NCBI GenBank assembly: GCA_965249715.1
Contig: CBDFMP010000037.1
Location: 711-64,710 of the forward strand
DNA: 64,000 nucleotides
Direction of reading: 5' to 3'
Source of the DNA: Spirochaetota bacterium
GTDB lineage: Bacteria > Spirochaetota > UBA12135 > COTS27
The position numbers and the translations under genes are program-made. The notes below the pieces were generated by a model. It made no database searches. It was not told where the DNA came from and saw only the letters and a list, made by a program, of their open reading frames with translations. This document shows, one piece after another, positions 3,486 through 64,000 of the stretch. Numbering within the stretch: the stretch's first letter is position 1; each line of letters starts with the position of its first letter.

Positions 3486-3499
3486 CTTAGCTTTAGGAC

Positions 3500-7300: not shown

Positions 7301-7504
7301 GGCATCTTCAATGGGTTTTGTGACCAGCTGCTCCATTGAATCGGAGGAGGCGCCCACATAGATTGTATCAATTCTTATAGCGTCCAGCCCCACAGCTGGA
7401 TATCCTTCTTTTTGTCCAGTAATAAAGGTTAGGGTACCTAAGACTAAAACTAGAACGACAATAAGGTTTAATGCCTTGTGTTGATTGACAAAGAATTGCA
7501 GCAT
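4301..7504 (-). CDS. RND-family efflux transporter permease (AcrB/HAE-like)
   Basis: 1067 aa, a typical RND length, with two large periplasmic loops between hydrophobic blocks. Collinear paralogy with the split gene at 7589-10815 (for example GHLAHLKD vs GHLAHLRD, IIVNDSLILV vs IIVNDSLVMV). Confidence 0.85.
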   Translation of the reverse strand: MLQFFVNQHKALNLIVVLVLVLGTLTFITGQKEGYPAVGLDAIRIDTIYVGASSDSMEQLVTKPIEDAILPIDGAESIHSHTSAGHSIIVFEVDDDSGIPISSLLRDIQAAVKNVKLPALAEEPIVQELRFGTWIVNIVAGFVGDVDNDVLKGLADRFSDDVKEIHGVGRVELINEPQISVKVKVDAAALKHHELTLPEIITRIKTRNFNVPAGKVTVDNKEFFIKTKTSYQSLDEIRNTIIRGNDKGQHVQLRDVATVQWEYQEIAVQRRVEGKQGVWVRIYKKPDGDIITISKNVKQLLADYETRKLLPAGVQTLTTDDNSFYVKRRLSILSSNATIGLGLVFLCMVLFFNLRVTLLTILGIPFSFCMAIIIMYQMGLTLNMMTMFGFIVVVGMLVDDTIIVAENIYFYREQGYSYYKAAIMGTQEMVVPILGIVLTTILGFMQTSNLPGFYGEMIQILAQAMIITLFCSLFECLLILPGHLAHLKDTTTSAKKDSDVRSSLLARFSTLSSKFHALFYYIAWVHCFTLRVAIRYPKITLSSFVLIMIGLVAFILPRLPVIYFPESPDKLTVSLEIPSESSLKQMSAVADTVEAALRAELPSKSVVELISTIGQSSGRFATIQSYLGYVTIYFDPAREESEYEMNKKVAQIMDEVQTPTKLVSFTTEEHHGGTQTERPLDLSISGKDMDTLTEAAETIANFMRELPNTTSVYINTEASKTELNVLPDPELADLLGVNIPLLAGTLQNSFSETNVVTLNELSRPDGYTLYDNEVELVVEYTNNSTNDDALLEQLPLRTDSYQLVPLTRVATIEKQENSGQIIKRDGEIFISVSAYLENPENIQYNENVLVKKIEEQFSTWQAAYTGIALKMRGERERQDELNRGILKTLLLICFSIYLLLTIIFRSYIQPLLVLSIIPLSYVGALIGLYTTNTALGFMPFMGGLALVGIIVNDSLILVKKLNEVRVENPNMDLKIAVLKGTEARLRPILMTSLTTIVGILPQAYGFAGKEPFLEPMAITLMWGLLISTPLLLIFLPAIYVLTDNISNSSRRQLKILGQLKPRKLLQH

Positions 7505-7588
7505 GGGTTTATAGAAGTTGGATAGCCGATCACTCCATGCGCAGCTGGCTTTTTATGATGTTATTAAACAGCAAGCATTGTGTTTAAG

Positions 7589-10500: not shown

Positions 10501-10815
10501 CATGATCTCACTATTGGCGCGGCCGATAGCATTGTCAATTTCAAAACTGATAACGGCACGCCCCTCACTGGAAAAAGAGGTGATCTTATTGGCACCCTCA
10601 ACAGTCTCAATTTCGTCCTCAATTTTTTTAGTAACAAGTGCTTCCACATCATCTGCTGATGCACCTCTGTAGGCTACAGAGATGGTGATAATGTCAAAGC
10701 CGATATTCGGAAACCCTTCTTTGCGTCCCTGAATAAAGGTCAGCGTACCAATGGTAATGACAAGGATAACGACAAGATTGACAGCTTTATATTGATTGAT
10801 GAAGAATTGAATCAT
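7589..10815 (-). pseudogene. second RND efflux permease, split into two overlapping ORFs (9112-10815 N-half, 7589-9184 C-half) by one frame change
   Basis: The two ORFs together are collinear with the 1067-aa paralog. The frame switch must lie in the ~9,110-9,200 overlap. This could be a true frameshift or a sequence error. Confidence 0.7.
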
Positions 10816-10898
10816 AATGAAATCCTTGGAAATTTTTTAAGAAGCCCCGCTCATGAAAATTTCAGCTGTGGTGGCTGCTTGGAAGGTCGCTTAAAATA

Positions 10899-12491
10899 CT
10901 ACTCACCAAGGGCGGGATGACTCAGTGCATTTATATTATAAAGTTTATTGAGTTCACCTGTAAGATATTGATAATTTAGAAGATTGCTTTCGTAGCTGAA
11001 TTTACTATTCAGGTAAGCCGTGCGCGCACGAAAAAGCTCGCGTTTAACGGCTACATTGATCTCAAAGTCAACACGTCCATCTTTGTAATCTTTACTGACT
11101 GCGGCATAACGTTTACGCGTAAGCTCAAGGATCTCGCGGCTGCTTGTCAGGAGTTGCCGACTTTCACTGAGTGCAATGAGATTATTTTGCAATTCCTGAA
11201 GAATATTCAGCTGCAGCTCCTGCAGCTGACTTTCCAGTTGCTTGACACTAAGCGCGGCTGTTTGGGTTTGTGCTTTGTACCATTTGCTGTCTGTGTAGGC
11301 GCTGAACTCTAGCCCCACTGTCACGTTGTAATGATTGATGTCACTGGGAGCAATGTTGTTGTAGCTAGCTGTAAACGTATCACCGGAGCCTATGAGGGTG
11401 GCGGAAAGCGAGAGGTCTAAGCTGGGCAGGCGTGCAAGCCTAGCAACGGTTAATTCATTTTGTGCGCTTATAAGACTGGTTTGCAATGCTTGATAATCTT
11501 CGCGCGCAGCCAATGCTGCAGGAAGCAAAACCTCTGCCGCAGTCTTCCTGTGCTGCAATGGAAGGGTTTCTGTGAAGACAAGTGTAGCGGCAGCGGCATT
11601 TGTCTTTGGTTTCATGCCCATATAAACAAACAAAGCTGTTCGCAACTGTGCCAAAGTGTTTTTTGTGCTGGTAAGTGTGCGTTTGGTTTCCTGCGTTAAA
11701 ATCTCAGATGACAGCAGATCACGTTCATTAAGGGTGCCCAGGCGTGATTTGCGTCTGTTGAAGCGAAATAGTTCAGTTACGTCTTTCAGATCTCTTTCAT
11801 AAAGTGTAATAAGAGCTTGCGTATTCATGTAACGATGATAAGTGATGAGCGCACTAAGCAGGGTAGCGGCTACTTCCAGTTTATAGCGGGCATCCTCTGC
11901 GCGTGCGGTGTAGAGCAGTGTGTCTAAGACTTTGCTGTTGTAGCCTTTGATGAAACCGCCATTGAGCAGTTTTTGTGAGATTGTAATACTGGGGATGCCG
12001 ACGCTCCAGATGGTGTTAGTACTAGTGGTGGTGGCTGTGAGACTGGCGAGGGAGACAGTTTCATTGACTTGATTATTCATGCCAATGCTTAGTGTGGTGC
12101 CGCTGATGAAATTGGTATTCCAGCTCAGGTTAAAACTGCTTAGCTGACCGCCAATGTCCCCGCTGATGAGTGGATTATATTGATAATCACCGCTGATGAG
12201 GCTTGGATAGCTGCTGGCACGCTGTTGTTCATAGGCAGCGTACGTGATGGAAGAATTTTGCCGCGCGGCCTGCAATTGTAAATTATTAGCAATCACTGCC
12301 TGACTGAAGCTTTTAAGATTTAGCTTAAGTGTTTCTGCTGCGGCAAGTGGTGTTTCACTGACAAATGCCAACAATATTAACAATATTAGCAATGGGTACA
12401 GCCTTATGCTCTGCCGGTAATATTTGAGCAGACGTTTAAACAATATGGCAAGTGAAAATTGATGTGGCAATGCCAGTAGCGTATAAGACAT
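10899..12491 (-). CDS. outer-membrane efflux factor (TolC/OprM family)
   Basis: 530 aa with a signal-like N-terminus (LLILLILLAFVSETPLAAAE). Family-typical segments: SFSQAVIANNLQLQAARQN near the N-terminus and LPSLDLSLSATL at the second repeat. Lies immediately upstream of two RND genes on the same strand. Confidence 0.75.
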   Translation of the reverse strand: MSYTLLALPHQFSLAILFKRLLKYYRQSIRLYPLLILLILLAFVSETPLAAAETLKLNLKSFSQAVIANNLQLQAARQNSSITYAAYEQQRASSYPSLISGDYQYNPLISGDIGGQLSSFNLSWNTNFISGTTLSIGMNNQVNETVSLASLTATTTSTNTIWSVGIPSITISQKLLNGGFIKGYNSKVLDTLLYTARAEDARYKLEVAATLLSALITYHRYMNTQALITLYERDLKDVTELFRFNRRKSRLGTLNERDLLSSEILTQETKRTLTSTKNTLAQLRTALFVYMGMKPKTNAAAATLVFTETLPLQHRKTAAEVLLPAALAAREDYQALQTSLISAQNELTVARLARLPSLDLSLSATLIGSGDTFTASYNNIAPSDINHYNVTVGLEFSAYTDSKWYKAQTQTAALSVKQLESQLQELQLNILQELQNNLIALSESRQLLTSSREILELTRKRYAAVSKDYKDGRVDFEINVAVKRELFRARTAYLNSKFSYESNLLNYQYLTGELNKLYNINALSHPALGE

Positions 12492-12822
12492 TATTTTTAG
12501 TGGATATAAAAAAGCTTAATGATTATTTAGAATGGAGTGGGGGGATGTTTGGGCATTCCACTTTGCCCATAATCTTTACTAACCTTTTACATCAGTAGAG
12601 TCAAGAATTTTCCCCAATTATAAGGGTTAATGATGATCGTTTTAATGCTGCAAAAAAAAGCAACTGGAGTCAGCTTATTATAAAAATTATGACTCTTAAT
12701 GTTAAAATTGATAGTGGAAAATGTTAAGTGCCAATTTTGCTTGTTAAGCAGCAAATGCTGTTGTGGTCTTAATGGTGGTAACGAACATTTAGTTGTTAAT
12801 TATAATATATTGTTAGTTATAA

Positions 12823-13617
12823 GTGGTAAGTGGTGTATGTTTTGTGAGACGCAAGCTTAAAACTTTACGACAGCTCGCACTTACCGGGGATCCTGGAAGT
12901 GGAAAAAGTGCAGTAGGGAAAGCTTTATCCAAGGCCTTGGGTATTCCTTATTATTCTGTGGGTGCTATTCAACGCGAAATGGCAGCGGCGCGCGGGATGA
13001 ATACATTGGAATTTAATCGTTTTGCTGAGGGCGATTTTAATATTGATCAGCAAGTTGACAGTTTTTCACGGGAATTGATGCGTAAATCAACAGATTTTGT
13101 CTTAGATGCACGCATGGGATGGTTTTTTATCCCTAGTGCTTATAAAGTTTATTTATCCGTGCAAAATAACATAGCGGGCAAGCGTACTTATGCTGATCGT
13201 AAACGCAATAATGAGCTATATGCTTCAATTGAAGAGGCAGCAAAGGCATTGAAACTGCGTCAACAATCTGAGCAAGCGCGCTTTCACAACATTTATGATG
13301 TGGAGCTTACGGCATTGGCACAGTACGATTTGTGGATTGATACTTCTTATGTATCGCCAATGGAAGTATTGCGTGTGATCAAGCAGGAACAGTTCAAACG
13401 CTCCGTAAGTTCAGCGCGCACACTTACACTTGCGGTACCACTATTTTTGCAGGCATCATTGGCAGACCACCATGTATTAAAGCGGATTAGGAAGGTCAAT
13501 CATGTGCACGCGCTTTATAAACAATTTAGCGGCTTATATGCTGCCCATGCTGTTGCTGCAGCGGATGTGCCTGTGAAGCTTTCCACTGTGGAAGTACCTT
13601 TGACAGCTGATGAGTAG
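12823..13617 (+). CDS. P-loop NTPase, cytidylate-kinase-like family protein
   Basis: Walker A LTGDPGSGKSAVGKAL, followed by a layout like small nucleotide/cytidylate-kinase-like proteins, plus a ~80-aa C-terminal extension. The start could be GTG 12823 or GTG 12844. Confidence 0.55.
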   Translation: MVSGVCFVRRKLKTLRQLALTGDPGSGKSAVGKALSKALGIPYYSVGAIQREMAAARGMNTLEFNRFAEGDFNIDQQVDSFSRELMRKSTDFVLDARMGWFFIPSAYKVYLSVQNNIAGKRTYADRKRNNELYASIEEAAKALKLRQQSEQARFHNIYDVELTALAQYDLWIDTSYVSPMEVLRVIKQEQFKRSVSSARTLTLAVPLFLQASLADHHVLKRIRKVNHVHALYKQFSGLYAAHAVAAADVPVKLSTVEVPLTADE

Positions 13618-47560: not shown

Positions 47561-47634
47561 TGCGGGATAGAGAAGTTTGGTATCTCATCGGGCTCATAAC
47601 CCGAAGGTCTCAGGTTCAAATCCTGATCCCGCCA
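47561..47634 (+). tRNA. tRNA-fMet (initiator), anticodon CAU
   Basis: 74-nt cloverleaf built by hand. U1:C72 mismatch, A11:U24, three G:C pairs closing the anticodon stem (tcGGG-ctCATaa-CCCga). Near-collinear with remembered E. coli tRNA-fMet. CCA is not encoded. Confidence 0.85.
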
Positions 47635-47762: not shown

Positions 47763-47802
47763 TAACAGTAACGCTAATGTTTGTTTAGCGTCCAATCATT
47801 AT

Positions 47803-47876
47803 GGCGAAGTAGCTCAGTTGGTTAGAGCAGCGGAATCATAATCCGCGTGTCCAGGGTTCGAGTCCCTGCTTCGCTA
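47803..47876 (+). tRNA. tRNA with CAU anticodon, elongator type (tRNA-Met; lysidine-modified tRNA-Ile2 not excluded)
   Basis: 74-nt cloverleaf. ggcgaag/cttcgct acceptor (G1:U72), GTAGCTCAGTTGGTTAGAGC D-arm, anticodon loop atCATaa, T-arm caggg-ttcgagt-ccctg. Confidence 0.85.
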
Positions 47877-48274
47877 GCTGAAAAATCATCAGCCCCCCAG
47901 CATTTAAACTGTCTTTGATGAGCATTGCATGACACGGCTCGTCTATTATTAAGAGTTGCCCATACTTGCGCAGCCAGCCCATCGCCAACAATTCCATTGA
48001 TGATTAAGCCCCGCGCCTTAGCGGTTCGCAGCGATGGCACGGTGTTTATTCATTGCCTGTGGGGTAGCGCCAATGGTTATGCTTAGCGCCTTCGCTTTTT
48101 CAAACTGAGGGTATAATTGAGAGTTATAGGATGGGAGCATAACGAGTGTTCTCGGTTTTTATAAACTTGAAAAATTAGAACATTGCCGTGGGATAGGTTA
48201 CACGCCAAAAACTTAATGATGATACGCTGTGCGTAACAAAAGCAAGCTTGTATGACGAAATTAAGAGGATTGAG

Positions 48275-49396
48275 ATGAAAGAACAGAAAGAAGAGCTGGT
48301 GGGATGGAGAAAAAAGCTGAAGGAATGTAAAAAAAATCTGGTGGGATGGAGAAAAAAGCTGAAGGAATGTAAAAAAAATCTGGTGGGATGGATAAAAAAT
48401 CTGAAGAAATGGTTTACTGTAACTATACTGATACGCTTTCTAATTCTCCTACTGCTGGGGGGGGTTGGCTCTAGGCTAAATTGGTGGTTCAGTACCACTA
48501 ATGCACTGCATTGTATATTTCCCGGTGTTAGCGGTGTTAGCGATGGTAGCGGTGGTAGCGGTGTTCGTGACTACATACTGATACTTGCTATTGGCTTGCC
48601 TGCGTTTTTGGGGCTGTGGTGGTTCAGGACGATTGATACGCGGGAGAATATTAGAATAGGGCAAGAGCAGATTAGCAGAGGAATATTAGCCGCTGCACAG
48701 GAGGCGATTTTCTCACAAAACCCCGCAAGGATGCGGTTTGGATTTACGCAGCTTTTGAACTTGCGGGAGAAAAAGCTGTTTGTGGAGGATGTGGAGCATG
48801 TTTTACAAAGCAAGAAAGAGGGAAAGATTGATTTAAGCGGAATTGATTTAAGCGGGAAAGACTTAAGGGGGTTCTATTTAGCAAATGCTGACCTGCAAGA
48901 TGCTCAGTTTGATAAGGGTACCGACCTGAAAGATGCTGACCTTACAAATGCTGATTTACAAAATACTATTGGTTTTAAGTTAGCAAAAAATATAAAAAAT
49001 GCCATACTGATACAGGCTAAGCTGCAAGAGCTTGACTTGCAAGAGTTAGACTTGCAGGGTGCTAAGCTACAAGGTGCTCAGTTGCGAGATGCTCAGCTGC
49101 AAAGTGCTCAGCTGCAAAGTGCTCAGTTGCGAGGTGCTAAGCTGCAAGATGCTCAGCTGCAAGGCGCTCAGTTTGATAAGGGTACCGACCTGGAAGATGC
49201 TGACCTTACAAATACTGATTTACAAAATACTATTGGTTTTAAGTTAGCAAAAAACATAAAAAGTGCTATACTGATACAGGCTAAGCTGCAAGATCTTGAC
49301 TTGCAAAAGTTAGACTTGCAGGGTGCTAACCTGCAACGGGCTCAGCTGCTCAGCTGCAAAGTGCTCAGCTGCAAGGTGCTAAGCTGCAAGAGCTAA
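48275..49396 (+). CDS. membrane-anchored pentapeptide-repeat protein (intact part of a longer, frame-broken gene)
   Basis: Shine-Dalgarno AAGAGG (48263-68) precedes ATG 48275. N-terminal 14-aa repeats LVGWRKKLKECKKN, two hydrophobic segments, then A(D/N)LxX-type pentapeptide repeats (DLSGKDLRGFYLANADLQDAQF...). The frame is lost after ~49,340. Confidence 0.65.
   Translation: MKEQKEELVGWRKKLKECKKNLVGWRKKLKECKKNLVGWIKNLKKWFTVTILIRFLILLLLGGVGSRLNWWFSTTNALHCIFPGVSGVSDGSGGSGVRDYILILAIGLPAFLGLWWFRTIDTRENIRIGQEQISRGILAAAQEAIFSQNPARMRFGFTQLLNLREKKLFVEDVEHVLQSKKEGKIDLSGIDLSGKDLRGFYLANADLQDAQFDKGTDLKDADLTNADLQNTIGFKLAKNIKNAILIQAKLQELDLQELDLQGAKLQGAQLRDAQLQSAQLQSAQLRGAKLQDAQLQGAQFDKGTDLEDADLTNTDLQNTIGFKLAKNIKSAILIQAKLQDLDLQKLDLQGANLQRAQLLSCKVLSCKVLSCKS
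48296..48412 (+). repeat. 42-bp (14-codon) tandem repeat, 2.8 copies
   Basis: ctggtgggatggagaaaaaagctgaaggaatgtaaaaaaaat at 48296-48337 and 48338-48379, plus a diverged partial copy. Confidence 0.9.
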
Positions 49397-51011
49397 GCTG
49401 CTAAGCTGCGAGATGCTCAGCTACAAGGTGCTCAGTTTGATAAGGGTACCGACCTGAAAGATGCTGACCTTACAAATGCTGATTTACAAAATACTGTTGG
49501 TTTTAAGTTAGCAAAAAACATAAAAAGTGTCACACTGGGACGAGCTAAGCTGCAAGGGCTTGACTTGCAAGGGTTAGATTTGCAGGGTGCTAAGCTTACA
49601 AAAGCTAAGCTGCAAAGTGCTGAGCTGCAAAGTGCTCAGTTTGATAAGGGTACCGACCTGGAAGATGCTGACCTTACAAATGCTGATTTACAAAATACTA
49701 TTGGTTTTAAGTTACATAAAAAGTGCTATACTGATACAGGCTAAGCTGCAAGATCTTGACTTGCAAGAGTTAGACTTGCAGGGTGCTAATCTGCTGCTGA
49801 CCTGCGAAAGGCTAAGCTGCTAAGCTGCAGAATGCTAAGCTGCAAGAGTGCTAAGCTGCGAGGTGCTAAGCTGCAAGAAGCTAAGCTGCAAGGCGCTCAG
49901 TTTGATAAGGGTACCGACCTGGAAGATGCTGACCTTACAAATGCTGATTTACAAAATACTATTGGTTTTAAGTTAGCAAAAAACATAAAAAGTGCACATA
50001 CTGATACAGGCTAAGCTGCAAGATCTTGACTTGCAAAAGTTAGACTTGCAGGGTGCTAACCTGCAAAAAGCTAAGCTGCTAAAGGCTAAGCTGCAAGATG
50101 CTCAGCTGCAAGGTGCTCCTGCGAAGGTGCTGACCTGCAAAGTAAGCTGCAGAATGCTAACCTGCGAGGCTGCTAAGCTGCAAGATGCTGCAGCTGCAAG
50201 GCGCTCAGTTTGATAAGGGTACCGACCTGGAAGATGCTGACCTTACAAATACTGATTTACAAAATACTATTGGTTTTAAGTTAGCAAAAAACATAAAAAG
50301 TGCCATACTGATACGGCTAAGCTGCAAGAGCTTGACTTGCAAGAGTTAGATTTGCAGGGTGCTAAGCCTTAAGATGCTAAGCTGGTGCTGAGCTGCAAGA
50401 TGCTCAGCTGCAAGGTGCTGACCTGCAAGAAGCTGACCTAAGCTGCAAGATGCTAAGCTGCATGCTAAGCTGCGAGAAGCTAAGCTACAAGGTGCTCAGT
50501 TTGATAAGGGTACCGACCTGCAAGACGCTGACCTTACAAATGCTGATTTACAAAATACAGCTGGTTTTAAGTTAGCAAAAAACATAAAAAGTGCTCACAC
50601 TGATAGGGACGAGCTAAGCTGCAAGGGCTTACAGCACTTGCAAGAGGTTAGATTTGCAAGGTGCTAAAAGGTGCTCAGTTGCGAGATGCTCAGCTGCAAA
50701 GTGCTCACACTGCGAGGTGCTAAGCTCAAGGTGCTGACCTTCAAGGGCTTAGTTTGATGCGACCTGGTGCTGACCTACAAGGTGCTGACCTGCAAGGTGC
50801 TGAGATCCATTGCAAGGTGCTGACCTTGCTCAGCTGCGAAGCTCAGCTGCGAGGTGCTTCAGCTACAAGGTGCTGACCTACAAGGTGCTGAGGTGCTGAC
50901 CTTTGCTAACTGCAAGGTGCTAAAGTAAAAAAAGCTCTAAAAGTAAATGGTGGCAGGATAGCGGGTACTATTGGTAATTATAATACTGGTGACATTGACT
51001 GGCAACCCTAA
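49397..51011 (+). pseudogene. frame-broken continuation of the pentapeptide-repeat gene (higher-order repeats; plausible original stop TAA 51009-51011)
   Basis: The marker cagtttgataagggtacc recurs at 48904, 49169, 49433, 49637, 49898, 50206 and 50497 (spacings 265, 264, 204, 261, 308, 291 bp), with a degenerate eighth copy near 50748. Many small deletions; only short ORFs in shifting frames. Confidence 0.7.
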
Positions 51012-51233
51012 ACCTCCGCATGGTACTTGACGGGCTGAAGTAATGGCAGCAGCAGCTTTTTAGCCGCTAAGAAAATAGCTGCTGAAAAATAACGGGATTA
51101 AGAAAAAATCGCAGGAAAGGCTCACCAACCCTTCCTGCAACTATTTAGTTAGGATTAGGTTACCCCCGCACAATTTAATACGCGGGGGAAAATCTGTTAC
51201 GGTGATAGCGCGCTGGTGGCGGCATTGCGCTGC

Positions 51234-53820
51234 TCAGTAAGTACAGCCTATGGTAGTACTTCGGATGGTATTGATAGCTTCGCACTGCTCAGCTGCTGTG
51301 ACCGGCAGACCCTTCAGCACAGGATATTGTGATGTTGTGCCGAAATTCCAATCGTCAGTACTCCAGCCAGCAAATATGCCGGGGTCGGTGCGGAGCGCCT
51401 TTAGCTCAGTGGTGGTTTTCCCTACACCCTCACCATCGGTGGTGCTGTTGAGGGTGCTGTCCCAGTAGCTGTTAGTGACATCTGCACCGTCGGGGGCTAA
51501 ACCGGTAAAGCTAGCGGTATTTGCTGCGGTTACTGTTGCCGCTACGTACACATTGCTCAGTGTTACTGGATTGAGACTCACACCGCCGCTTGTATAACCA
51601 GTAGCAGTACCAGTGGTTTCAACGCTTCCAACAAAGTAGCTGTTATGAATGGTACCAATAGAAGAACCTACCAGTCCGCTGCCGAATTCACCTGCAGATA
51701 TGCTAGCCGTAGCAAAACTATTATTGATAGTGCTGCCACTAGCTGCATTCCCCACTAGTGCACCTACTCTGCTGCCGCCATGATGAACAGTAAGATTGAT
51801 AACTGCACTATGACCGATGTTGCCGCCGCCGGCCATAGATCCCACGAGTCCGCCTACATAAACACCTCCAGTTATATTGGCATTTACCAATGTGCAGTTG
51901 GTGATGAGCAGCGTTCCCATCAAGGTGAAAGCAAAGAGTCCGATTGTAATATCCGTCATTATTCGGACTGCCGTTATTAGTATTGCTGATGGTGAGGTTG
52001 GAAATGGTGTTTGAGGCGCAGTCCAGTGTTCCCGTGAAGCTTCTACCTTTTTGATAAGTACTGTCGCTACTGGTTGAATTCGTTCTTTTGCCGATAGGCA
52101 CAAAGCCGTTACCTGTGGTGATATTCGTCCAAGGTGCGTCAGTAAGCCCGAGGTCAATGTCAGCGGTGAGTGTGTAATGTTTATCCCTGTAAGTGGTGCC
52201 GTCAGAAGTGTCGTCGCCATTTACCAGCCGGCTCATGAGGTCTAAACGCAGGTCATTATCAATGAGGTAGGGGTTGTCAGCATCCGCGCCAGTGCCGCCA
52301 GCGAATGAGTCGCACTCTTGCACGGTGATAGTGGCACTGCTGTAGTTAATTAGCGAACCATTTTCGGGAGTGGCAGAGGATGCGGTCAAGCTGCGATCAT
52401 TAATATTCGCTGTACCGCTGTTGTCAAAGTAGGGGGAGTGGCTGCCGGGAGTAGTGCCGAACGTGGCACTCACTGTGGTTTTATCACCAGCTTCATCAAT
52501 GGTGAACAGCGAGTAAGTGAATATTTCGCAGGGGTCAAGGTTTTTGCTGATGCTGCTTTCTCCCTCAGCAATGGTGGTGGTGCTGGCGTCACCGCCAATT
52601 CTAACATTATAAGAGGGTGCAAGTACTAAGCTGACGGTGTAGTCTGCTGTAATGCCACTATTTGTAACGGTGAACGTTCCCAGGCTGAGCGTTTGGGTTT
52701 GAGTGCCAGCTTGGTCGGTGAATGTCAGTGTTGTTTCGTCCATTGTTATGGTGGATCCGCTGGTTGCTGCTGCGATGGTGACAGAACCAGTATCAGTATC
52801 GGTTAAGCCAAGATTGGTGCTGTCAAGGTTGCGGACATGCCGGCGGCGGCTGTCGATGGTAACGATAGTTCCCGAAATATCGATGTCGCTGATACTGGAG
52901 ACGATGTCAGAGTTAAGGGTATTGGTAACGGAGATGTTAATGTCGCTGGCACTGATGCTAACATCGGGAAGTTCAGACAGCACCACGACTAAATCATAAG
53001 AAGCTTGATTGGTAGTGTCGTCTTCAGTGATGCTGAAGTTACTGCTGATGGTTTCTTCAGCAGTGCCATCGGAGTCAGTGAATGAAACGGGGCTGGGACT
53101 GAGGGTGTAACCTGCTGGAAGACTGATACCACTGGCAAGATTAAGGGTGACAGAGCCTTCTGTACCACTGCCAGTGGGATTGAAAAGCCCGGTGATGGTA
53201 AGGGTAGGGGTATTGCCAGTGGTATCCCAGCTGACGTTGGCACTTTGACTATCAAAAGTAACGGTTGCATCGGTAGCAGGGATGAGCGCGTCAATGCCGC
53301 CGGCAGCGGCGACAATATTACTAACAGGCTGTCCGCTGTACTCTACGATGATGTCAATAGGAATAATGCTATCATCCGCAAGGCTGGTGATGGTGAGGGC
53401 GTTGGGGTTGGTGTCGGTGGTGGTTTTGGCGCCGTCAGACATCGACGGTGATATTGAAAGTGAAAGGTGAAGCAGCAAAAGTGAAAGCAGTAGCATCTTC
53501 AGTAATGGTGAGGGTGGCTAAGGTGCCAGTGGTAGTCAGTACATTATCGCAGGGTCAGACCGGGGCAGGCATTGGTGAGCAGCTTGCCAGTAATGGTGAT
53601 GGTGCCTGTGGCGGGGTCGGTGGTGCTGTCGATGGAAACGGTAGTCGCGAGCTCTAGGTTGCTGGACGTTATTGGACAGATCAATGGTAACGGCGTCAGT
53701 GAGCGCCTGTTCCAATGGGCTGAGACGCGTAGAGTCTTCCGTAGCGGCGCAGCTGGAAAGGATGAGTGTGAATGCGCTAACACTAAGTATGAGCGCAAAA
53801 AGCTTATAGGATGATTTCAT
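51234..53820 (-). pseudogene. large GLUG-motif surface lipoprotein/adhesin-like gene broken into at least 4 frames
   Basis: Signal plus lipobox (FTLILSS|CAA) at 53820. Thr/Ser-rich beta-type repeats. The C-terminal part carries GLUG-like repeats (YVGGLVGSMAGG, SRVGALVGNA, GSGLVGSS) and SYWD...TELKAL...FAGW...WNFG..QYPVLKGL. Frame changes near 53,660, 53,545-53,445 and 51,960. Confidence 0.65.
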
Positions 53821-53833
53821 GATAAATTCCTTG

Positions 53834-54021
53834 AAATTTTTAATTGTGCGGCATAACGCCTGTTAAACATTGTTAGTATAACATGAAAAGTATGACTAAG
53901 CTTGCCATATTAACGGGGAATTCATTAAAATTTTTAATTGTGCGGCATAACGCCTGTTAAACATTGTTAGTATAACATGAAAAGTATGACTAAGCTTGCC
54001 ATATTAACGGGGAATTCATTA
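53834..54021. repeat. 94-bp tandem duplication (2 copies) immediately upstream of the GLUG lipoprotein gene
   Basis: taattgtgcggcataacgcctgttaaacattgttagtataacatgaaaagtatgactaagcttgccatattaacggggaattcatt starts at 53841 and again at 53935. Confidence 0.9.
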
Positions 54022-54101
54022 GGCAAGCTAAGAAGCTGGCTGAGCAGCTTCAGTGATGGTGGTGTGAGCGCCGCTTAGCGCGGCACTTAATGGAAAATAT
54101 G

Positions 54102-54144
54102 CCCCCCCAAGTTTAGGTGTTCACCAAACAAAAAGGGGGGGGGG
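54102..54144 (-). terminator. possible aceA terminator: C10/G7 homopolymer stem with a large loop
   Basis: The minus strand after the aceA stop reads C10 (54144-54135), 26 nt, G7 (54108-54102), then catattttcc. The loop is long, so this is weak. Confidence 0.3.
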
Positions 54145-54152
54145 TGCTGTAC

Positions 54153-55430
54153 TTAAAATTGTTCAGCTTCAGTGGAACCTGCAAGAGCTTGTGTTGAGGA
54201 AGTACCGCCAGTAATGGCCGTATTCACAGCATCGAAATAACTTGCGCCCACCTCACGTTGATGTTTGGTGGCAGTGTAGCCGTGTGCCTCATCGGCAAAC
54301 TCGCGTTCTTGCAATGTAACATATGCTTGCATACCCATTGTTTTGTAACGCCGCGCCAGATCAAACATACCGTGATTAAGGGCATGAAATCCCGCTAAGG
54401 TGATGAATTGAAACTTATAACCCATCGCGCCCAGCTCACGCTGAAATTTAGCAATGGTGGCATTGTCTAAGTGCCGCTTCCAGTTAAACGATGGCGAACA
54501 GTTATAAGCCAACATTTTATCGGGGAATTGTTTATGCACAGCTTCAGCAAACTGTTTGGCTGTGTCCAGGTTAGGCGTATTGGTTTCCACCCATAAAAGA
54601 TCGGAAACCGGGGCGTAGGCAAGCGCGCGCGCGATGCCTTGCTGGATGCCCGGACGGAGACGATAAAAGCCCTCAGCTGTGCGAGCACCCTTTTCAATAA
54701 AAGCATGGTCGCGTTCGTCAATGTCACTAGTGATAAGCGCAGCCGATTGGGCATCTGTACGCGCAATAATGAGCGTTGGTACATCCATGGTGTCGCTCGC
54801 AAGGCGCACAGCCATTAGCTTTTGAATCGCTTCCTGTGTGGGAACAAGTACTTTGCCGCCCATATGACCGCATTTTTTAGCGGAGGAGAGCTGATCTTCA
54901 AAATGTACCGCACTGGCACCCGCTACAATAAGCGCCTTGGTGAGTTCAAACGCGTTGAGATTGCCGCCAAAACCTGATTCAGCATCGGCAACAATAGGAA
55001 CGAACCAGTCAGTGTCATGATTGCCTTCTGCGGAGGTAATTTCATCAGCACGTTTAAACGCGTTGTTAATTTTTCGCACAACAGCAGGCACACTGTCGAC
55101 GGGATAAAGACTTTGATCGGGGTACATGGTCTCGGCGGTATTGGCATCGGCTGCCACCTGCCATCCGCTGAGATAAATGGCTTTCAACCCCACACGCGCC
55201 ATTTGCATGGCTTGATTGCCGCTGAGTGCACCCAATGCATTAATGTAGGCATTGTCCTGCAATGCCCGCCATAATTTTTGCGCACCCTGCTCCGCTAAGG
55301 TATGAGCAATGGGAAGTGTGCCACGCAGCTTCACCACCTTGGCGGCGGTGTAGTGACGCGTGACACCTTGCCAACGCGGGTTATTCTTCCATTCCTGGAT
55401 AAGTGTTTCACTGGACTTAAATGTTTTCAT
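54153..55430 (-). CDS. aceA: isocitrate lyase
   Basis: 425 aa. Signature KKCGHMGGK. Adjacent to malate synthase. Confidence 0.9.
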
Positions 55431-55524
55431 GGAATTGTATTTGGATATCCTCCATAAAATTGAATTGTTGGGTTAAGTTTTATGATTGATCATAAACCGT
55501 TAATAAACACGTTAACCATTCAGG

Positions 55525-57126
55525 TTAATGATGGTTAAGCTCAGCATAAGCTGCCAATGTCAGAAAGTCCGCAAAAGTTGGTTGCGTGACAATCTTACGC
55601 AGAATAACAAAGGCACGCGTGTAATAAGTGCCAGCTGCCACAAGCGCTGCCTTAGCAGCTTGTGTTTCGCTTTCAATGTTTTTAAAACAGCTTTCGATGA
55701 ACGTTGCATCTACCAGTGCATGGGTATCGGCAGTGGTTTTGTTGGGGATGCCGTAATGGGACCATTGCCAGAGCTGGGCACGCGCAATTTCAGCAGTTGC
55801 CATGTCTTCCATCAGGTGATTAATAGGCACACAGCCCGTACCGCTAAGCCATGCCGCCAAATAATGCACGGCAGCACGAATATTGTTCTCGATGCCCGCT
55901 TGGGTGACCGTGCCCTTCGGGACAGCCAGGAGATCTTGTGCGGTGATGGTGACATCGCTGAGGAGTTTTGATTTTTGATTGGCCTGCGGCATCACCTGCT
56001 TAAAAATGTCCATGGCTATCGGAACAAGCCCCGGGTGCGCTACCCAAGTGCCGTCGTGACCATTTTTAGCTTCACGTTCTTTATCGGCACGTACCTTGGC
56101 GATAGCTTCATCATTGGCGGCGGTGTCGGTTTTAATGGGGATTTGTGCAGCCATCCCGCCCATGGCGTGTGCGCCGCGCAAGTGACATGTTTGGATCAGC
56201 AGCTTGGAATAACTGCTGAGGAAATGTGTACTCATGCCCACCTGTTCACGATTCGGTAAAACAAAACTCTTATGGTTGGCAAACTTCTTAATGAATGAAA
56301 AAATATAATCCCAACGCCCACAATTCAGCCCCACACAATAATCGCGCAATTCGTGGAGAATTTCGTGCATTTCAAAAACAGCGGTGATGGTCTCAATGAG
56401 TACTGTTACACGAATGCTGCTGGCAGGAAGCTGCAATTGCGTTTCTGCTTGTTTGATGAGTTTCGCCCAAAGGCGCGCCTCTTCATGACTTTCCAACTTG
56501 GGAAGATAAAGGTAGGGGCCGCTCCCGTGCTCAAGTGCGGCTTTGGCATTGTGAAAGATGTGTAAGGCAAAATCAACAAAAGCACCGGGGACGGCTTTAC
56601 CGTTAAGTGTGATATTGGTTTCAGGCAAATGCAGTCCGCGCGGACGGACAATAAGAATAGCCAGCTCCGCCGGCGCTTTCAAGCGATATTCCTTGCCTGC
56701 AGGATTTGTAAAGGTGATGGACTGACGCACGGCATCGTAAATATTCTGCTGCCCTGCCATGAGGCCATCCCAGGTAGGACTTTGCGAGTCCTCAAAATCT
56801 GCCATATAAACCTTTGCGCCAGAATTGAGACCATTGATGATCATTTTTCTGTCAACGGGACCGGTGATCTCTACACGTCTGTCCTCCAAGTGCGCAGGGG
56901 GTGGTTTTACGCGCCAACTTTTATCCTCGCGGATGGCGTGCGTGGCAGGTAGAAAATCAGGGAAGACACCAGCATCAAACTGCGCCTGACGCGCCTTGCG
57001 TTTATGCAAAAGCTCCTCTACTGTCTGAGCATGTTTGTTGACCAATGTTTCCAAAAAGCTAAGCGCTTCTTGACTAAGGATTTTTGCATATTTCTGCTGC
57101 TGAACGGGGTTAATGCTTAAAGTCAT
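55525..57126 (-). CDS. aceB: malate synthase A
   Basis: 533 aa. GPYLYLPKLESHEEARLW, GLNCGRWDYIFS, HDGTWVAHPGLV. Confidence 0.9.
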   Translation of the reverse strand: MTLSINPVQQQKYAKILSQEALSFLETLVNKHAQTVEELLHKRKARQAQFDAGVFPDFLPATHAIREDKSWRVKPPPAHLEDRRVEITGPVDRKMIINGLNSGAKVYMADFEDSQSPTWDGLMAGQQNIYDAVRQSITFTNPAGKEYRLKAPAELAILIVRPRGLHLPETNITLNGKAVPGAFVDFALHIFHNAKAALEHGSGPYLYLPKLESHEEARLWAKLIKQAETQLQLPASSIRVTVLIETITAVFEMHEILHELRDYCVGLNCGRWDYIFSFIKKFANHKSFVLPNREQVGMSTHFLSSYSKLLIQTCHLRGAHAMGGMAAQIPIKTDTAANDEAIAKVRADKEREAKNGHDGTWVAHPGLVPIAMDIFKQVMPQANQKSKLLSDVTITAQDLLAVPKGTVTQAGIENNIRAAVHYLAAWLSGTGCVPINHLMEDMATAEIARAQLWQWSHYGIPNKTTADTHALVDATFIESCFKNIESETQAAKAALVAAGTYYTRAFVILRKIVTQPTFADFLTLAAYAELNHH

Positions 57127-57832: not shown

Positions 57833-59693
57833 ATGAAACAAATTGTGCCAGCTGCCGTTATGCAGGCAATTGATAAGGCGGCTCAGCAGGACGGGCTTAG
57901 CGGCGAGGCACTCATGGAGAGTGCCGGCAGGGCTGCCTGGCTGATACTCAGACAGCAGCTGCTATTGCGACTGCTACGCCGCAGGAAATTGCGGCTTGTG
58001 ACGACATTACGCCTTATTATCGTCTGCGGCAAGGGCAATAATGGCGGCGATGGTCTGGTATTGGCGCGTTACGCATTGCTGGATACGCTTTTTGCTGCAG
58101 CTCCCCAACAGGGATTCCGTTTGCAGCTGTACGTAGGCCTGCTGAGTGAAAGTGCTGCTGAACTCAGCAGCGCCAATTATGCCAACTTTCGCAAATTGCG
58201 CGCCTGCCAATCCGCTAGCGCCGCCGAAACACCCGCACCGCTGCTGCAAATACAAACACCCGCAGCTGCCCTGGCAATGGCGCAGGATGCCGATATTGAA
58301 AAATGCTGCAAGACCTGCAGTGTTCACCATTATTGTCGATGCGCTGCTGGGAACGGGCAGTCATGGTGTTTTGCGGCAGCCGTATCGTGACATTGTGACG
58401 CGCATCATGCAACTGCGTGCGGACTTGCCATTGCGTGCTGTTAGGGTGGTGGCATTGGATGCGCCTACGGGGGCATTGAGTTTTAGTGATGCAGCTGAAC
58501 AAACACCTGCTGAGCTGGCAGCAGCGCCCTGTCTGCGTGCAGATTTGACAATCGTCTTTGAATGGGTGAAGTTGGAACTCTTAGCTCCCGCTGTGCGGCG
58601 TATGGCGGGACAGCTTTGCTGCGCGCGCGTGGGATTTCCGCCTGCATTGCTGCATTTATACAATACTCAGCAACGGTCTCAGTTCACTCAGCCGCGTTTA
58701 TTGGAATGGTCAGATGCAGCAGCGGCATTGCCGCCGTATAGACAGGATGATTACAAAAAAACACGCGGACGTGTGGGGGTGATTGCCGGGACAACGGGAT
58801 TATTGGGAGCGGGTGTTTTGGCAGTGCGCGCTGCCAGTGCTGCGGGCGCAGGACTGGTCACGCTCTTCTCGCAAGCTGAAGCTTTGCCGCTTCAAGCAGC
58901 GCGCCTTGTGGAGCAAATGGTGTATCCATTGAGCAGCTTGCTGCAAGCTGAGGCTGAACCTGCCGCCATGGGTTATGCACGTCCCGTACGTCCTGCCATT
59001 GAACCTGCCGCCGCGGCACTCAGCGCTTTTGATGCCATGCTCATAGGCCCTGGTTTAGGGGCTGGCGCATTGGAACTGCCTTATATGCGCGAGAGCTTAG
59101 CTGCGGTATTGACGTCTCAGCTGCCATTGTGTTTCGATGCCAATGGCATCGACTGTGTCCGTTCATTACATGCCGCGGGGGTTTGGGATAGTTGCACGCA
59201 AGCCGCACATGCTAAGGGCGCTAAGGATGCTAAGGGTGCTAAGGACGCGCCGCCACTGCGTTATTGTTTGACCCCGCATATTGGTGAACTGGCGCGCCTC
59301 TTGGATGTCAGTACGCAGCGCATAGCCGCCAATCCATTGCCATACCTGCAAACGGCATGTCAACGTTTTCACGCGGTGATAGTGCTGAAGGGGCAGTGCA
59401 GCATCATTGCCGCGCCAAGCGGACAGCTGGCATACATTGACGGGAATAATCCCTTCTTAGGCACTGGCGGCAGCGGCGATGTGCTGGCGGGCGTGATTAC
59501 CGCTTTCATGGCTTATCTGCAGCAACACGCTCGCGGTGGTGACAGCCACCACAGCGTCTTTCGGGCGGCATGGCTGGGGGTGCTGCTGCACGCAGAAGCA
59601 GGACGGCGGGCATTGAAACGTTATGGCGTCTTCACTGCATCGCAGCTTTTAGCGCCATTGGCACGGGTTGCGGCTGCATGTTTGAAATATTAA
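57833..59693 (+). pseudogene. nnr: bifunctional NAD(P)H-hydrate repair enzyme (epimerase + ADP-dependent dehydratase) with one frame change
   Basis: YjeF-N landmarks: CGKGNNGGDG (frame of 57833) and TIIVDALLGTG (frame of 58146). C-terminal kinase-like domain YKKTRGRVGVIAGTTGLLGAG...GTGGSGDVLAG. The frame switch maps to ~58,296-58,320, next to an A5 run. Confidence 0.8.
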
Positions 59694-60197
59694 AACAAAC
59701 ATGCTCTCCCTGTGCATACGCCCGCTTCTAATCTATTTTATACGTAACATCATCTTGTTTGTAACGAGTTGGGGGTACTATGTTAACTTGCATTGTCCCT
59801 ATCAAATAAACAATATAAATAAATAAATACATTTTATTCTTGCTCAAATGCAACTATGCAAAATCCCCGTTTCAACATGCCCCGTGTGGGTTTGTGCTCT
59901 GGTCTCCCCTACCATTTTTGCTTGAAAGCGGTATCTTATTAGTACCAAAATAGAACATTATTGTACTTTCATATGTTTCATATTGTACATATGGGAAATG
60001 TGTTCCTTAAGGAACAAATATGTAGCTTCAATGTACCATTATTTCTGAGAGTGTTGCTGTTGTTGATGTTAATTACACTGGTGGTTTGACATTTTGTGAG
60101 TATGTTCGCTATAATTCCGTGACCCGTATTTAGCCAGTATTTAGTCACAGGCTGCGCGTACAAATGCGTAAACAGGGATTCCTAGGAGGCAGGAAGA

Positions 60198-60217
60198 GGG
60201 GGGGGGGGGGGGGGGGG
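60198..60217. repeat. G20 homopolymer
   Basis: Counted directly: 60198-60217. Confidence 0.95.
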
Positions 60218-62281
60218 TAAAAAGCGGCATCACGAATCGTTCGTGCCGAAGAAAAGCCGCGCACGATAGAGGACATCCGATCGAATTGTGCTGTGTGGAC
60301 TCGTATACCTTCCTCTGTGCATCCGCAGCACGACTCGTGCTTTTCCCCGCAATGCAGTAGGCTACCAATTAGTTTTCATATTCCATGAATAAGAATGTAA
60401 CCCACTAAGTTCAGTTGTAAATCGCTCTACTTCATATTTAGTAGGCTACTGCTTCTCTGCAAATGTAGCCTATTAATCCTGATAAATAACCCACATAAAA
60501 CAACAAATATGAAAATAAATGTTGCTGATATCAACGCGGAATGAACTATAATTGAATAAAATGTGCATCCACACATGCATGCACATTTTACGTTTGGATG
60601 TTTGCGACCCAGTACATCGTGACTAAGCGCCTAAAGGATATATATATATAAGATAGGCTATCTTAAACCCGGAGAGTAAATGGTACTCTTTAAAAACACG
60701 TGAAGGTTGTCGTGCCTTTCGTGTGTAGGCTACCTCTTGGAAAATTGATTCAGTCAGACACACTGGCCAGACTGTCGTCTAACCTCTTCCCAAGTGCGGC
60801 AGTTGCGTGACTGACCTGGTCTTGCCTCATTTTGCGTTGCGTGAGAAGTTATTAATGTGAGCTCCCACTCGCAAGAATATCCGACGCGGTATCAGGCAGA
60901 GCCAGATAAAACGCTGCGTATTACGCTGCAACCGGAGAGACAGCAAGGTGGCCGGACCAGCAGTAAGGTGTGTTCTGTGTTTCAAATCCAGTCTAGGATT
61001 AACTGGTCCTAACTGTGTAAGAAAAAAACATTGAAATACTCCTTATTAAAAGCGCGTTGTATCGTCAATACTGGGATGGATATTAGGATAATCATGTTTG
61101 GTATGAAAATGTGATACATTTAATAAAGGCTAGATCACATATATTCAATGTTAGGACAGTTTGTTTGTGGCTGTGTTCGAAACCGCATACTAGTAGTGGT
61201 CTACTAAATTTCAGCCTGATTCTCATTTAAATGTAGTACGAGTAGTTTGCTAAATATGCAGTTTCGACCAGAGCCTGTGTTTGTCAAGGAGTTGGAAGAG
61301 CGTGAAAAGTCAGTGGAGAGACGTCACGACACGTCATCGCAGTAGTAGTAGTCACATAGAGCGCATGTACCTCGCACGGAACTCACAGATCTGACACGTC
61401 ACGAAGGCAGTCACTCAGGAAGTATTCATCGCATTATCACGATGCCGTGCCTCTCCTCTCCCTCACCCCCTGGGCATCACTGTGCCTTCCATGGAAATCG
61501 TTCTAAAAAGGAGCAATTAAAAGAGCCAACTCGCTAAGCTGTTTCCTGCTGAACTCTTGATAGTGGAAGCATTACGTTATTTCTAATTTATATTTTATTA
61601 AGAAAAAAACAGCTCAGGCTAGGTTTTGAAATAGCTAGTAGCAAGTATTTCAAGCTATCCATAGCTGAATTTTACACCAGTGTTGTATTATTTCTAGCCA
61701 CATTAAACAAATTTTGCAAGATCCACATCTGTACCCTGCCCCGCGAACAGAATGCCCCAGTCCAATACACAGAATGCCTCCGTTTTAAAGAGCTAGATGC
61801 AAGAGGCAGTAAGCACTATTTTTGAAGGTTTAGTGTAGCATGGCTGTTGGGGGTGGGGGTGTCCTTCTGGAAGCTCTTACAACATGAAACCAAAACTGGT
61901 GATAAGTTTACAATGTCAGGAATTCACTGACAGCATCAAACCCGAGTACTAACAAGCCCAAGCACTGATAAGTGTGTGTTGAGGTCGGGCCGGTCCAGCA
62001 TGACTAGTGGGTGAGTCCAACATCACACTGCAGAGAAGATTTACTTTACATGACATTTTATTTAGCAGATGCTTTATTCTAAAGCGACATACAAAACAGT
62101 AGACGTCAAGGTCATAGAACAAACAACCCACAGCTCAGATACGGTACAATTCATATATGATTGGTTGTAAGGCCATGCATTTAAGTCCAGTACGCAAGGT
62201 AGATAGGCCGAGCATGAAAGGACCATGGCGAGACATCTTCAGGAACTAAAGTGCTGAGACATACAAATTCAAAAGATCTTA

Positions 62282-62455
62282 TTGTGGCTACACCAAGACT
62301 TGTGCCACCAACCGTCATGCACCTTAGCCACTAGCTACAGCTGCCCCCCAAGATGCTCAAGGGTACAACAGCAGTGTCACGGCGAGGAATCAAACTCACA
62401 ACCCTCCTGTGACAAGTCCAGCTCACAAGCCATTACTGCTCCAGGGAGGATTGCA
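62282..62455 (-). mobile_element. tRNA-derived SINE-like sequence (teleost-style), tentative
   Basis: The minus strand contains tRNA-like modules: ggcagctgTAGCTAGTGGctaagg (A-box-like) and gggttgtGAGTTTGATTCCtcgcc (B-box-like). These resemble vertebrate/fish tRNA-SINE heads as I remember them. Confidence 0.3.
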
Positions 62456-62472
62456 CCCCCCCCCCCCCCCCC
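62456..62472. repeat. C17 homopolymer
   Basis: Counted directly: 62456-62472. Confidence 0.95.
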
Positions 62473-63325
62473 AATATTATTTAACAGTCCTTTCATTTCC
62501 ACCGGAAAAAAACCCAAGTCCCCTCCTACCACTGTATCCGAGCTCAAGCATTCCTTTTCTGTGACAAACACGCACACTCCGGATGCATTCTTGAACCTGT
62601 GGAATCTCGCAAACTGCCCAGGCTCCGATTGGGTAAATCGTCATCATGCAAATCATCCAATCAGCAAGGGCGCTGAGAGGGGAACGAGCCTCAGGGATCC
62701 GTTGTCAGAAGTGTAGCCGGGTAACGACGTATTCTTGCGGACAGGCCTGATCCCTGATATAACTGTTAATTTTTCAGCTGCACAATGCTTTCTATGTGCC
62801 TGTGTGCTGTACTTCAACACCAATGTTATCTGTGGTGCTTATCTGTGTCTAGGTGGAGCCCGGGAAGGGAAGATTACAACTCCAGTATTTCCTGGGGCAC
62901 CCTATATTTACACAAAAAAGAGTCCTAAAGTCATTGCCCGGCATTGTCACGTGACAGCTGTTTTTTTTATTTATTCATATCTGGTGAAGGCTGTTGGTGA
63001 AGGGTCACAGAATGAGTAAGCACCTATTTCAAGAGAGCTAACCTTTACAAATAATCTGGAGATGTTGGTACACCCGGTACACTATATTAAGTGTATTTTT
63101 TATAATGCGCCCATGTTATATGCAATATATACGTATGTAACTGTACATGTGGTTTAGTACGGATTCCCCTCCACCCTTTGTATGGTACCTGTAACCCTGG
63201 CAGGATTTCTGAACAGGCAGGATTAGTTTCTGTTAACTGGAGTAGGCAGGGTTTCCCGCCCGAATTTGCTTGGTTTCGGGGACAATGTCATTGAGTGCAA
63301 AGTCTTCTCTCTGGATGTGTTTTGT

Positions 63326-63755
63326 ACGGTGGCCCTGAGAGCTCAACGCACTGCGACTTAAGAAAACATATGCAAGTAGACAAAAACACAACCAAATTAA
63401 GAAAACATTTTCATTTAAAAAAAAACACTTTTTCACCCAGTAGTTTTAGTTCATTTTCCAACAGCATTGACGGGTAGCCGATTTTAATAACTTACAACCA
63501 TAGACACATATACAACAACGTCATATCCAGCTGTGTTCATCACTTTTTATTGTCCCCTGGAAACATTTCCTTTGTGTTTTTTGTGAATTTGCAACGTTTT
63601 ACTTTTGCAGCGCGTTTGTGTATCTGCATCGCGTCTTCTAAATGCTGCGCATGTGTCGTCAACTTGATGAAAATACTTTCTTCATTTTGTTGTGTTTTGT
63701 CTATTTGCATGTGTTTTCTTAAGTTGCAGTGCGTTGAGCTCACAGGTACACCGCA
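63326..63755. repeat. inverted repeat, ~90-bp arms (63326-63414 and 63666-63755), ~250-bp spacer
   Basis: Arm A reads ...gagctcaacgcactgcgacttaagaaaacatatgcaagtagacaaaaacaca.... The reverse complement of arm B reads ...gagctcaacgcactgcaacttaagaaaacacatgcaaatagacaaaacaca.... Confidence 0.8.
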
Positions 63756-64000
63756 GATTTGAGTGAGTGAGTGCTGCCACCCGAACCTACACCCCTCTCA
63801 CCCTACATCCAAACCTACACCCCTCTCAACCTACACCCAACCCTACACACCTGTCAGCAACACTCTGTCAACCCCAAGCCTCAAGCTTACACCCCGCTAC
63901 CTATTCCACTCTCACGTTTGTTTTTTTGTTTTTTTTCAAAGATTGTGATCTGTTACAGGGAAGGGATGATTCCCCACACAAGACTGGTTATCTGTGACAG

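Follow-up and report, generated by a model that had tools for sequence, protein, structure and literature searches.

The window analysed here, a single stretch of DNA of 64,000 nt, consists of two parts of different character that meet shortly 3' of the stop codon of a bacterial gene. The left part, positions 1–59693, is an ordinary segment of bacterial chromosome with approximately 35 intact genes and five frame-broken loci, as judged from ORF density, Pfam matches and similarity to Spirochaetes bacterium COTS27 (see below). In most of its 4.3-kb blocks, 84–100% of the sequence belongs to open frames no shorter than 150 aa, and the genes with Pfam support include nnr (YjeF_N plus Carb_kinase), aceB, aceA, folD, ileS, rpoN and acrB, among others. 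ORF density and Pfam matches both uphold the initial annotation, in which bacterial genes were described as running nearly wall-to-wall up to 59,693. Two 4.3-kb blocks are low in ORFs, one being a block of tandem repeats and the other containing a frameshifted pentapeptide-repeat gene. Genes of 1065–1067 aa are unbroken, and the cumulative GC skew rises steadily along the entire left part. The CpG observed/expected ratio (o/e) is 0.8–1.0 and GpC is in excess, with an o/e of 1.3–1.8 in the bacterial blocks. This GpC excess is maintained in non-coding DNA too (o/e 1.46–2.19 in 12 of the 12 non-ORF gaps). Even the decayed or non-coding stretches at 1081–3502 and 49394–51236 (1.8–2.4 kb) consist of recognisable gene fragments with a GpC o/e of 1.7–2.1. 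There are no host-like segments or host transposon insertions inside 1–59693, and no rRNA genes within the 64-kb window.

All five of the frame-broken loci listed by the initial annotation exist. They are an RNase H fragment array, an acrB-like gene, the pentapeptide-repeat gene, a COTS27-type surface gene and nnr, which makes the frame-broken share five of approximately 40 genes. The breaks can be explained equally well by decay of a symbiont genome or by consensus errors, and decay after transfer into another genome fits too. In the bacterial repeat arrays the frequency of indels climbs from 0–3% to 10–17% along the array. Such a gradient would fit a consensus that is error-prone or built at low coverage.

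What is this bacterium? The top match for both aceB (66%) and aceA (70% amino acid identity), among 358 relatives, is COTS27. The aceB-aceA order is the same in COTS27, and a family of surface-protein paralogues is common to both genomes at 30–40% identity. However, the gene order around aceB-aceA is otherwise not the same. Conserved proteins and gene order place the bacterium in the marine spirochete clade of COTS27, and the divergence between the two suggests at least a separate genus. A collection of 5.8 billion proteins contains no close relative. The best nnr match anywhere has 36% identity, the exact products of aceB, aceA, the DUF3467 gene and ileS have no record, and a 34-mer from the end of nnr is absent from the metagenome contigs scanned. 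Therefore, a second assembly of this bacterium is absent from the collections searched. [quoted passage not shown]

The last bacterial gene is nnr (57833–59693, plus strand), encoding a bifunctional NAD(P)H-hydrate repair enzyme and recognised by Pfam, tblastn and C-terminal alignment. It has a single frameshift between 58090 and 58266. YjeF_N profile positions 2–88 are found in the ORF at 57833–58390 and positions 100–167 in the ORF at 58146–59693, followed by Carb_kinase. At the C-terminus, the alignment with a full-length homologue (P0001) stops only a few residues short of the homologue's end, which means that the gene is complete and that the junction is 3' of its stop codon. The switch from bacterial to animal-like DNA was assigned to a zone at 59694–59840 by direct reading, by the drop in GpC and by fit to a third-order Markov model built from the bacterial part. 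Markov fit and GpC both fall between the frames beginning at 59601 and 59701, and an A/T-rich, (AAAT)3-like stretch of low complexity is found at approximately 59806–59836. The breakpoint may be anywhere from 59694 to approximately 59840, a resolution of about 150 nt. No terminator is predicted in the junction zone, there is no N anywhere in the window, and the best alignments of adapter sequences at or near the junction are no better than those in control blocks. The break lies between genes, directly behind one that is complete, and a random break would do so roughly one time in ten, which is uninformative either way. Homopolymers are classic misjoin sites, and a G20 tract at 60198–60217 (plus strand) is a candidate for the primary junction. 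It was rejected because 59694–60198 already lacks the GpC excess kept by every bacterial non-ORF gap (o/e 1.16 versus at least 1.46, although the numbers are small).

The right part, positions 59694–64000, is non-coding, repeat-rich and animal-like. Long open frames cover just 11% of it. No stop-to-stop frame exceeds 152 aa, a length reached by 15% of dinucleotide-preserving shuffles, and none of the open frames down to 20 aa, searched in two sets (at least 55 aa and 20–54 aa), has a homologue among the 5.8 billion proteins. This confirms the earlier impression that there is no credible ORF from 59,694 onward, and it also means that the open-frame protein search found no remnant of bacterial coding sequence beyond the junction. 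The tetranucleotide comparison proposed by the initial annotation separates the two sides. The right part has a signature correlation of 0.43 with the bacterial part, versus 0.78–0.90 for bacterial blocks and 0.53 for the repeat block. The GpC o/e is 1.05 overall (range 0.9–1.4), and the CpG o/e is 0.32–0.6 across most of 61.5–64 kb, with one 500-bp frame at 0.91. The fit to the Markov model is below the bacterial 1st percentile at 59701–60100, the earliest 400-bp frame beyond the stop codon, and under the bacterial 5th percentile in most of the later 400-bp frames. A plasmid or phage origin was rejected because the right part matched neither. Non-coding sequence, loss of the bacterial dinucleotide signature, partial CpG depletion and an L2-clade tail together support the earlier description of this DNA as eukaryote-like.

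That tail is the only positive identification within the right part. It is the 3' tail of an L2-clade (UnaL2-type) retroposon at 62040–62105 on the minus strand, recognised by a match to the Rfam family RF00436 (UnaL2) at 62052–62105 and by its fold. The match scores 36.8 bits, with an E-value of 1.6e-4 in a search of 4.4 kb and of 0.0023 over the entire window. This is significant yet misses the RF00436 gathering score of 55 bits, which indicates a degenerate or divergent copy. The 54-nt match spans the whole model, and the minimum-free-energy fold (-12.7 kcal/mol, z = -1.98) contains a GCUUUA/UAAAGC hairpin whose pairing agrees with the RF00436 structure line. Other points of likeness to UnaL2 and L2 tails are the GCUUU/AAAGC stem, the conserved UCUGCUAAAU segment and a 3' TGTAA. 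However, the loop is AGAAU rather than the GGAUA of UnaL2, and whereas UnaL2-type tails usually have about three copies of TGTAA (n = 3) the 3' end of this one, read on the minus strand, has one TGTAA and then AGTAA. The UnaL2 LINE protein recognises the GGAUA loop, and in zebrafish L2 elements the loop sequence is variable (PMC1636434). The match marks animal retroposon DNA. The Rfam family was curated from eel and zebrafish elements, and L2-type tails are found in molluscs as well (PMC4758252). The vertebrate or teleost origin hinted at in the initial annotation is a guess, and the bacterium's relatives are found on marine invertebrates. A 29-mer from the tail also occurs approximately 100 nt 3' of EN+RT LINE ORFs in contig L081. 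The tail motif is present in 15 metagenome contigs, but the shared stretch is only the 35–60-nt tail, and the body upstream of the window's tail is unlike that of the other contigs. Viral contigs scanned with the motif had no match, and searching full texts of the literature for the SINE and tail sequence strings gave nothing useful as a clue to the host.

The tail is preceded in the same orientation by a putative SINE head or body (62282–62455, minus strand), proposed on account of this arrangement. The initial annotation saw two tRNA-like modules here. Their tRNA-like nature finds no support above chance. The Rfam tRNA model RF00005 has no match in 62030–62480 even at E ≤ 10, and ARAGORN reports nothing at its default or 90% thresholds and only chance-level matches at 80% (two, versus a shuffle mean of 1.8). 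On these grounds tRNA-like heads were set aside as unverified. The other repeats are real, with small corrections. A C17 homopolymer (62456–62472, plus strand) directly abuts the putative SINE at its 5' end, and together with the G20 tract it forms an inverted pair bracketing 2238 bp. A dG/dC-tailing cloning artefact was rejected as the source of this bracket because the flanks are without PstI half-sites or vector sequence. The AT tract is present, but as the microsatellite (AT)6 at 60638–60649 rather than the (AT)7 first described. The inverted repeat with reported 90-bp arms is a foldback (MITE-like) element at 63327–63753, with 88-nt arms (63327–63414 and 63667–63753) that are 87.5% complementary, a 252-nt spacer and no clear target-site duplication. 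It is followed by a C/A-rich minisatellite (63778–63861, plus strand) with approximately three copies of a 28-nt unit. The right 4.3 kb is non-coding DNA of animal type that carries a foldback element and a minisatellite besides its retroposon tail and long homopolymers.

How did the two parts come to be joined? The window is probably a co-assembly artefact, in which a spirochete contig was misjoined to nuclear DNA of a co-sequenced animal. The source would be a live marine spirochete that is related to COTS27 and associated with a host, and the end of its contig would have been wrongly extended into, or joined to, animal DNA. Either the assembler or a chimeric read could have produced the join, possibly via the A/T-rich stretch at about 59.81–59.84 kb, and the G20 and C17 tracts could be further weak joins. 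The CpG and GpC values of the left part, its steady skew, its intact genes and its freedom from insertions give no hint that it has resided in an animal genome. An artefact is also favoured by the lack of any bacterial coding remnant beyond the junction, and by the make-up of the right part, whose repeats and low-complexity DNA are the kind of sequence in which misjoins cluster. The surface-dwelling habit of the relatives and the hologenome origin of the COTS27 genome fit as well, and the indel gradient in the repeat arrays is compatible with it. Like the chimeric contigs of hologenome assemblies, the window has a long, intact, gene-dense bacterial segment adjoining repeat-rich host DNA, and the bacterium comes from an animal-associated marine spirochete clade. 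The difference is that no mark of a join (N gap or adapter) was found here, so that the artefact is deduced indirectly. This gap-free, adapter-free junction counts against a misjoin, as do the frame-broken genes.

Could the spirochete DNA instead be part of an animal chromosome? In this scenario at least 60 kb of a symbiont chromosome has very recently integrated into the nuclear genome of an animal host, be it an echinoderm, another marine invertebrate or a fish, with most genes still intact. The continuity of sequence over the junction is what a real insertion would give. Five frame-broken loci within 59.7 kb would fit one too, as the initial annotation had noted, and nnr, the gene at the junction, is among them. 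Such spirochetes are also physically close to host tissue (PMC7444263). Insects and nematodes provide known cases of such lateral transfer from symbiont to host, with Wolbachia as the donor. Those insertions likewise consist of tens of kb of near-intact symbiont DNA adjoining host DNA, with some genes frame-broken. However, Wolbachia is a germline-resident, intracellular donor whereas the donor here would be an extracellular spirochete, and we know of no such transfer for spirochetes, echinoderms or fish. Only a single flank is visible, and 1–59693 has no host transposon, no CpG decay and a fully kept bacterial dinucleotide signature. Approximately 35 genes are intact, and the frame breaks that would speak for insertion are, as discussed, no better explained by it than by symbiont decay or consensus errors. 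On balance an insertion is unlikely, though it deserves to be taken seriously.

Transfer in the opposite direction, which would put 4.3 kb or more of host DNA inside the bacterial chromosome with bacterial genes resuming beyond the window, is very improbable. One would not expect a bacterial genome of 2–3 Mb to retain so long a stretch of non-coding repeat DNA, and 4.3 kb pass without a bacterial gene. The window's end at 64000 is still inside animal-like DNA, and nothing specific favours this direction of transfer. The initial annotation rightly ranked last the idea that the right part is bacterial DNA after all, of an unusual non-coding or decayed kind, and we give it almost no credence. Although decayed stretches do occur in the bacterial part, these hold their GpC excess, as do all other real bacterial non-coding stretches, and consist of recognisable gene fragments, whereas the right part has neither and combines CpG depletion and a retroposon tail of an eel- and zebrafish-curated family with a lack of plasmid or phage similarity.

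The consequences depend on which reading is correct. A true insertion would be a dated, very young example of transfer and, as far as we know, the first large spirochete symbiont-to-host transfer. It would extend such events beyond the paradigm of Wolbachia in arthropods and nematodes to an extracellular marine symbiont. If, as we favour, the window is instead a chimera of spirochete and animal DNA, then the record should be split at approximately 59.7 kb. The left part would then offer a useful piece of a marine spirochete lineage that has no other sample, one in which glyoxylate-shunt genes are found beside a COTS27-type surface-protein family.

The window consists of two parts that meet at a sharp boundary immediately past the stop codon of nnr (59693), the last bacterial gene. 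The left part (1-59693) is ordinary bacterial chromosome. Open frames of 150 aa or longer cover 84-100% of bases in most of its 4.3-kb blocks. Pfam matches comprise two AcrB-type transporters, an outer-membrane efflux protein, sigma-54, an LptD/LptC-like pair, an aminotransferase, IleRS (1065 aa), FolD, a pentapeptide-repeat protein, isocitrate lyase, malate synthase, a DUF3467 protein and bifunctional Nnr. Two tRNA-Met genes are also present (47561-47634 and 47802-47878). A weak partial match to the tmRNA model RF00023 (8066-8311, plus strand; 21.4 bits, E 1.2e-4, model positions 56-300) lies on the strand opposite a broken acrB-like gene and is probably spurious, because ARAGORN finds no tmRNA. 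The spacer upstream of aceA (53518-54155) contains 2.1 copies of a 94-nt unit, 98% identical (53825-54021), together with C7 (54102-54108) and G10 (54135-54144) runs.

The boundary that the initial annotation placed at the nnr stop codon is borne out by both coding content and composition. The C-terminus of Nnr is complete (its residue 510 of 515 pairs with residue 509 of a 517-residue homologue), and no terminator is predicted after the gene. Two measures of composition shift past 59693. Under an order-3 Markov model trained on 1-57000, the fit falls from 0.046 (59501-59900) through 0.012 (59601-60000) to -0.039 (59701-60100), the last being below the bacterial 1st percentile. Right of 60100 most frames lie below the bacterial 5th percentile, the fit partly recovering at ~61.4-62.0 and 63.2-63.8 kb. 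The cleanest marker is GpC observed/expected. On the bacterial side this is 1.3-1.8 in blocks and 1.46-2.19 in all 12 non-ORF gaps, which include AT-rich intergenic spacers and decayed repeats; on the right it is 1.16 in 59694-60198 and 0.9-1.4 beyond. The breakpoint can be placed only to the interval 59694-~59840. Inside this interval is an (AAAT)3-like A/T-rich stretch (~59806-59836), and the two parts may have been joined through such common low-complexity sequence.

The right part (59694-64000) had been described as lacking any credible ORF, and this holds. Its longest open frame is 152 aa rather than 144 aa, which is at the level of shuffled sequence (126 ± 26, with 15% reaching 152). Neither the frames of at least 55 aa nor those of 20-54 aa have homologues, and therefore there is no bacterial gene remnant, recognisable exon or transposase. 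There is also no similarity to plasmids, phages or the left part. CpG observed/expected is ~0.7-1.05 over 59.75-61.75 kb and 0.32-0.61 in most frames beyond 61.5 kb, except 63251-63750 (0.91). The G20 and C17 tracts and the inverted repeat reported earlier were all found again, the repeat with arms of 88 nt instead of 90; the AT tract exists, as (AT)6 and not (AT)7. A 28-nt minisatellite is likewise confirmed. G20 (60198-60217) and C17 (62456-62472, flush with the 5' end of a putative SINE) form an inverted homopolymer pair enclosing 2238 bp. Neither restriction half-sites nor vector sequence flank them, so nothing points to a tailing-type cloning artefact. They may be true homopolymers of the host, or else scars left by gap filling or weak joins.

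The sole positive identification in the right part, and the sole eukaryotic family match in the whole window, is a UnaL2 LINE 3' element (Rfam RF00436; 62052-62105, minus strand). The alignment spans the whole model and scores 36.8 bits, short of the gathering score of 55, with E 1.6e-4 over the 4.4 kb searched and 0.0023 over the entire window. The hairpin folds as in the model, and one TGTAA follows it. Tails of this type end in (TGTAA)n and are recognised by the LINE machinery on LINEs and partner SINEs (PMC1636434). Independently, metagenome contigs were scanned with a degenerate 29-mer of the tail; the 15 that contained it were all CpG-poor (0.14-0.77) with GpC near 1. One of these (L081, ERZ1023334) carries a LINE at 703-3774 with APE-type endonuclease and reverse-transcriptase ORFs, the tail motif ~100 nt past them and then a second reverse-transcriptase ORF. 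The tail alone is common to the window and these contigs. Parts of 62040-62455 may resemble teleost SINEs, which we take as a lead only. The tRNA-like SINE-type modules proposed earlier gain no support from the tRNA covariance model, and ARAGORN does not score them above chance. The tail argues for animal DNA but not for fish in particular, because L2-type tails have been reported from mollusc SINEs as well (PMC4758252).

What kind of join is this? The initial annotation counted five frame-broken loci; they are real and all lie in the left part. At the first (1084-3499), truncated and internally deleted copies of the 3' part of an RNase H1 gene, ~5-6 in number and ~94% alike, form a 397-nt tandem array directly downstream of the intact gene (3500-4252, minus strand; Cauli_VI and RNase_H domains). 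The second is an AcrB-type gene in two pieces, 9112-10815 (profile positions 1-489) and 7589-9184 (538-1020). The third, a pentapeptide-repeat gene, begins at 48248 and goes out of frame from ~49330. Across its 260-310-nt repeats indels climb from 0-3% to 10-17%; either the gene is decaying or the consensus within the repeat is poor. The block of tandem units (48248-50930) reads in frame for 382 aa before many small deletions, and has the strongest GC skew in the window and low CpG. The fourth (51234-53496) is a surface gene of the type found in COTS27, a subcuticular symbiont of crown-of-thorns starfish; ORFs 51234-52220 and 51808-53496 align to successive stretches of one 1132-aa COTS27 ORF and two paralogues. 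The fifth is nnr, split within its YjeF_N domain between 58090 and 58266. Such breaks are compatible with decay of a symbiont genome, with consensus errors in a genome co-assembled at low coverage and with decay after transfer, and do not tell these apart.

Sequence alone offers no direct test between a chimera and a real insertion. Nevertheless, an assembly chimera of symbiont and host DNA is the reading we hold to be moderately probable. The bacterial part bears no mark of having resided in an animal genome, its clade is routinely sequenced together with hosts, the host-like side is entirely repeats and low complexity, and the repeat arrays resemble imperfect consensus. A very recent insertion of bacterial DNA into the host genome is rather unlikely, although the junction is seamless (neither a gap nor an adapter was found) and broken genes are fairly common. 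The rest of the probability is spread over rarer readings. Bacterial non-coding DNA, ranked lowest from the start, is very unlikely, every bacterial non-ORF gap having GpC of at least 1.46.

A chimera of this kind would still inform on the bacterium. The closest of 358 malate synthase relatives, drawn from 185,579 species genomes, is that of Spirochaetes bacterium COTS27 (66%), followed by a Spirochaetota MAG (57%); for isocitrate lyase, identity to these two genomes is 70% and 69%, respectively. In both genomes aceA directly follows aceB, as in the window. Within 51234-57126 this glyoxylate shunt pair adjoins the COTS27-type repeated surface-protein gene, and in COTS27 at least three paralogues of that family flank aceB-aceA (L001, the COTS27 contig, 5764-13533). 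The COTS27 genome was itself reconstructed out of host hologenome data (PMC7444263). Because the top match to Nnr among 5.8 billion proteins is only 36% identical, and the exact aceB, aceA, DUF3467 and ileS products have no record anywhere, the bacterium of the window is an unsampled one.
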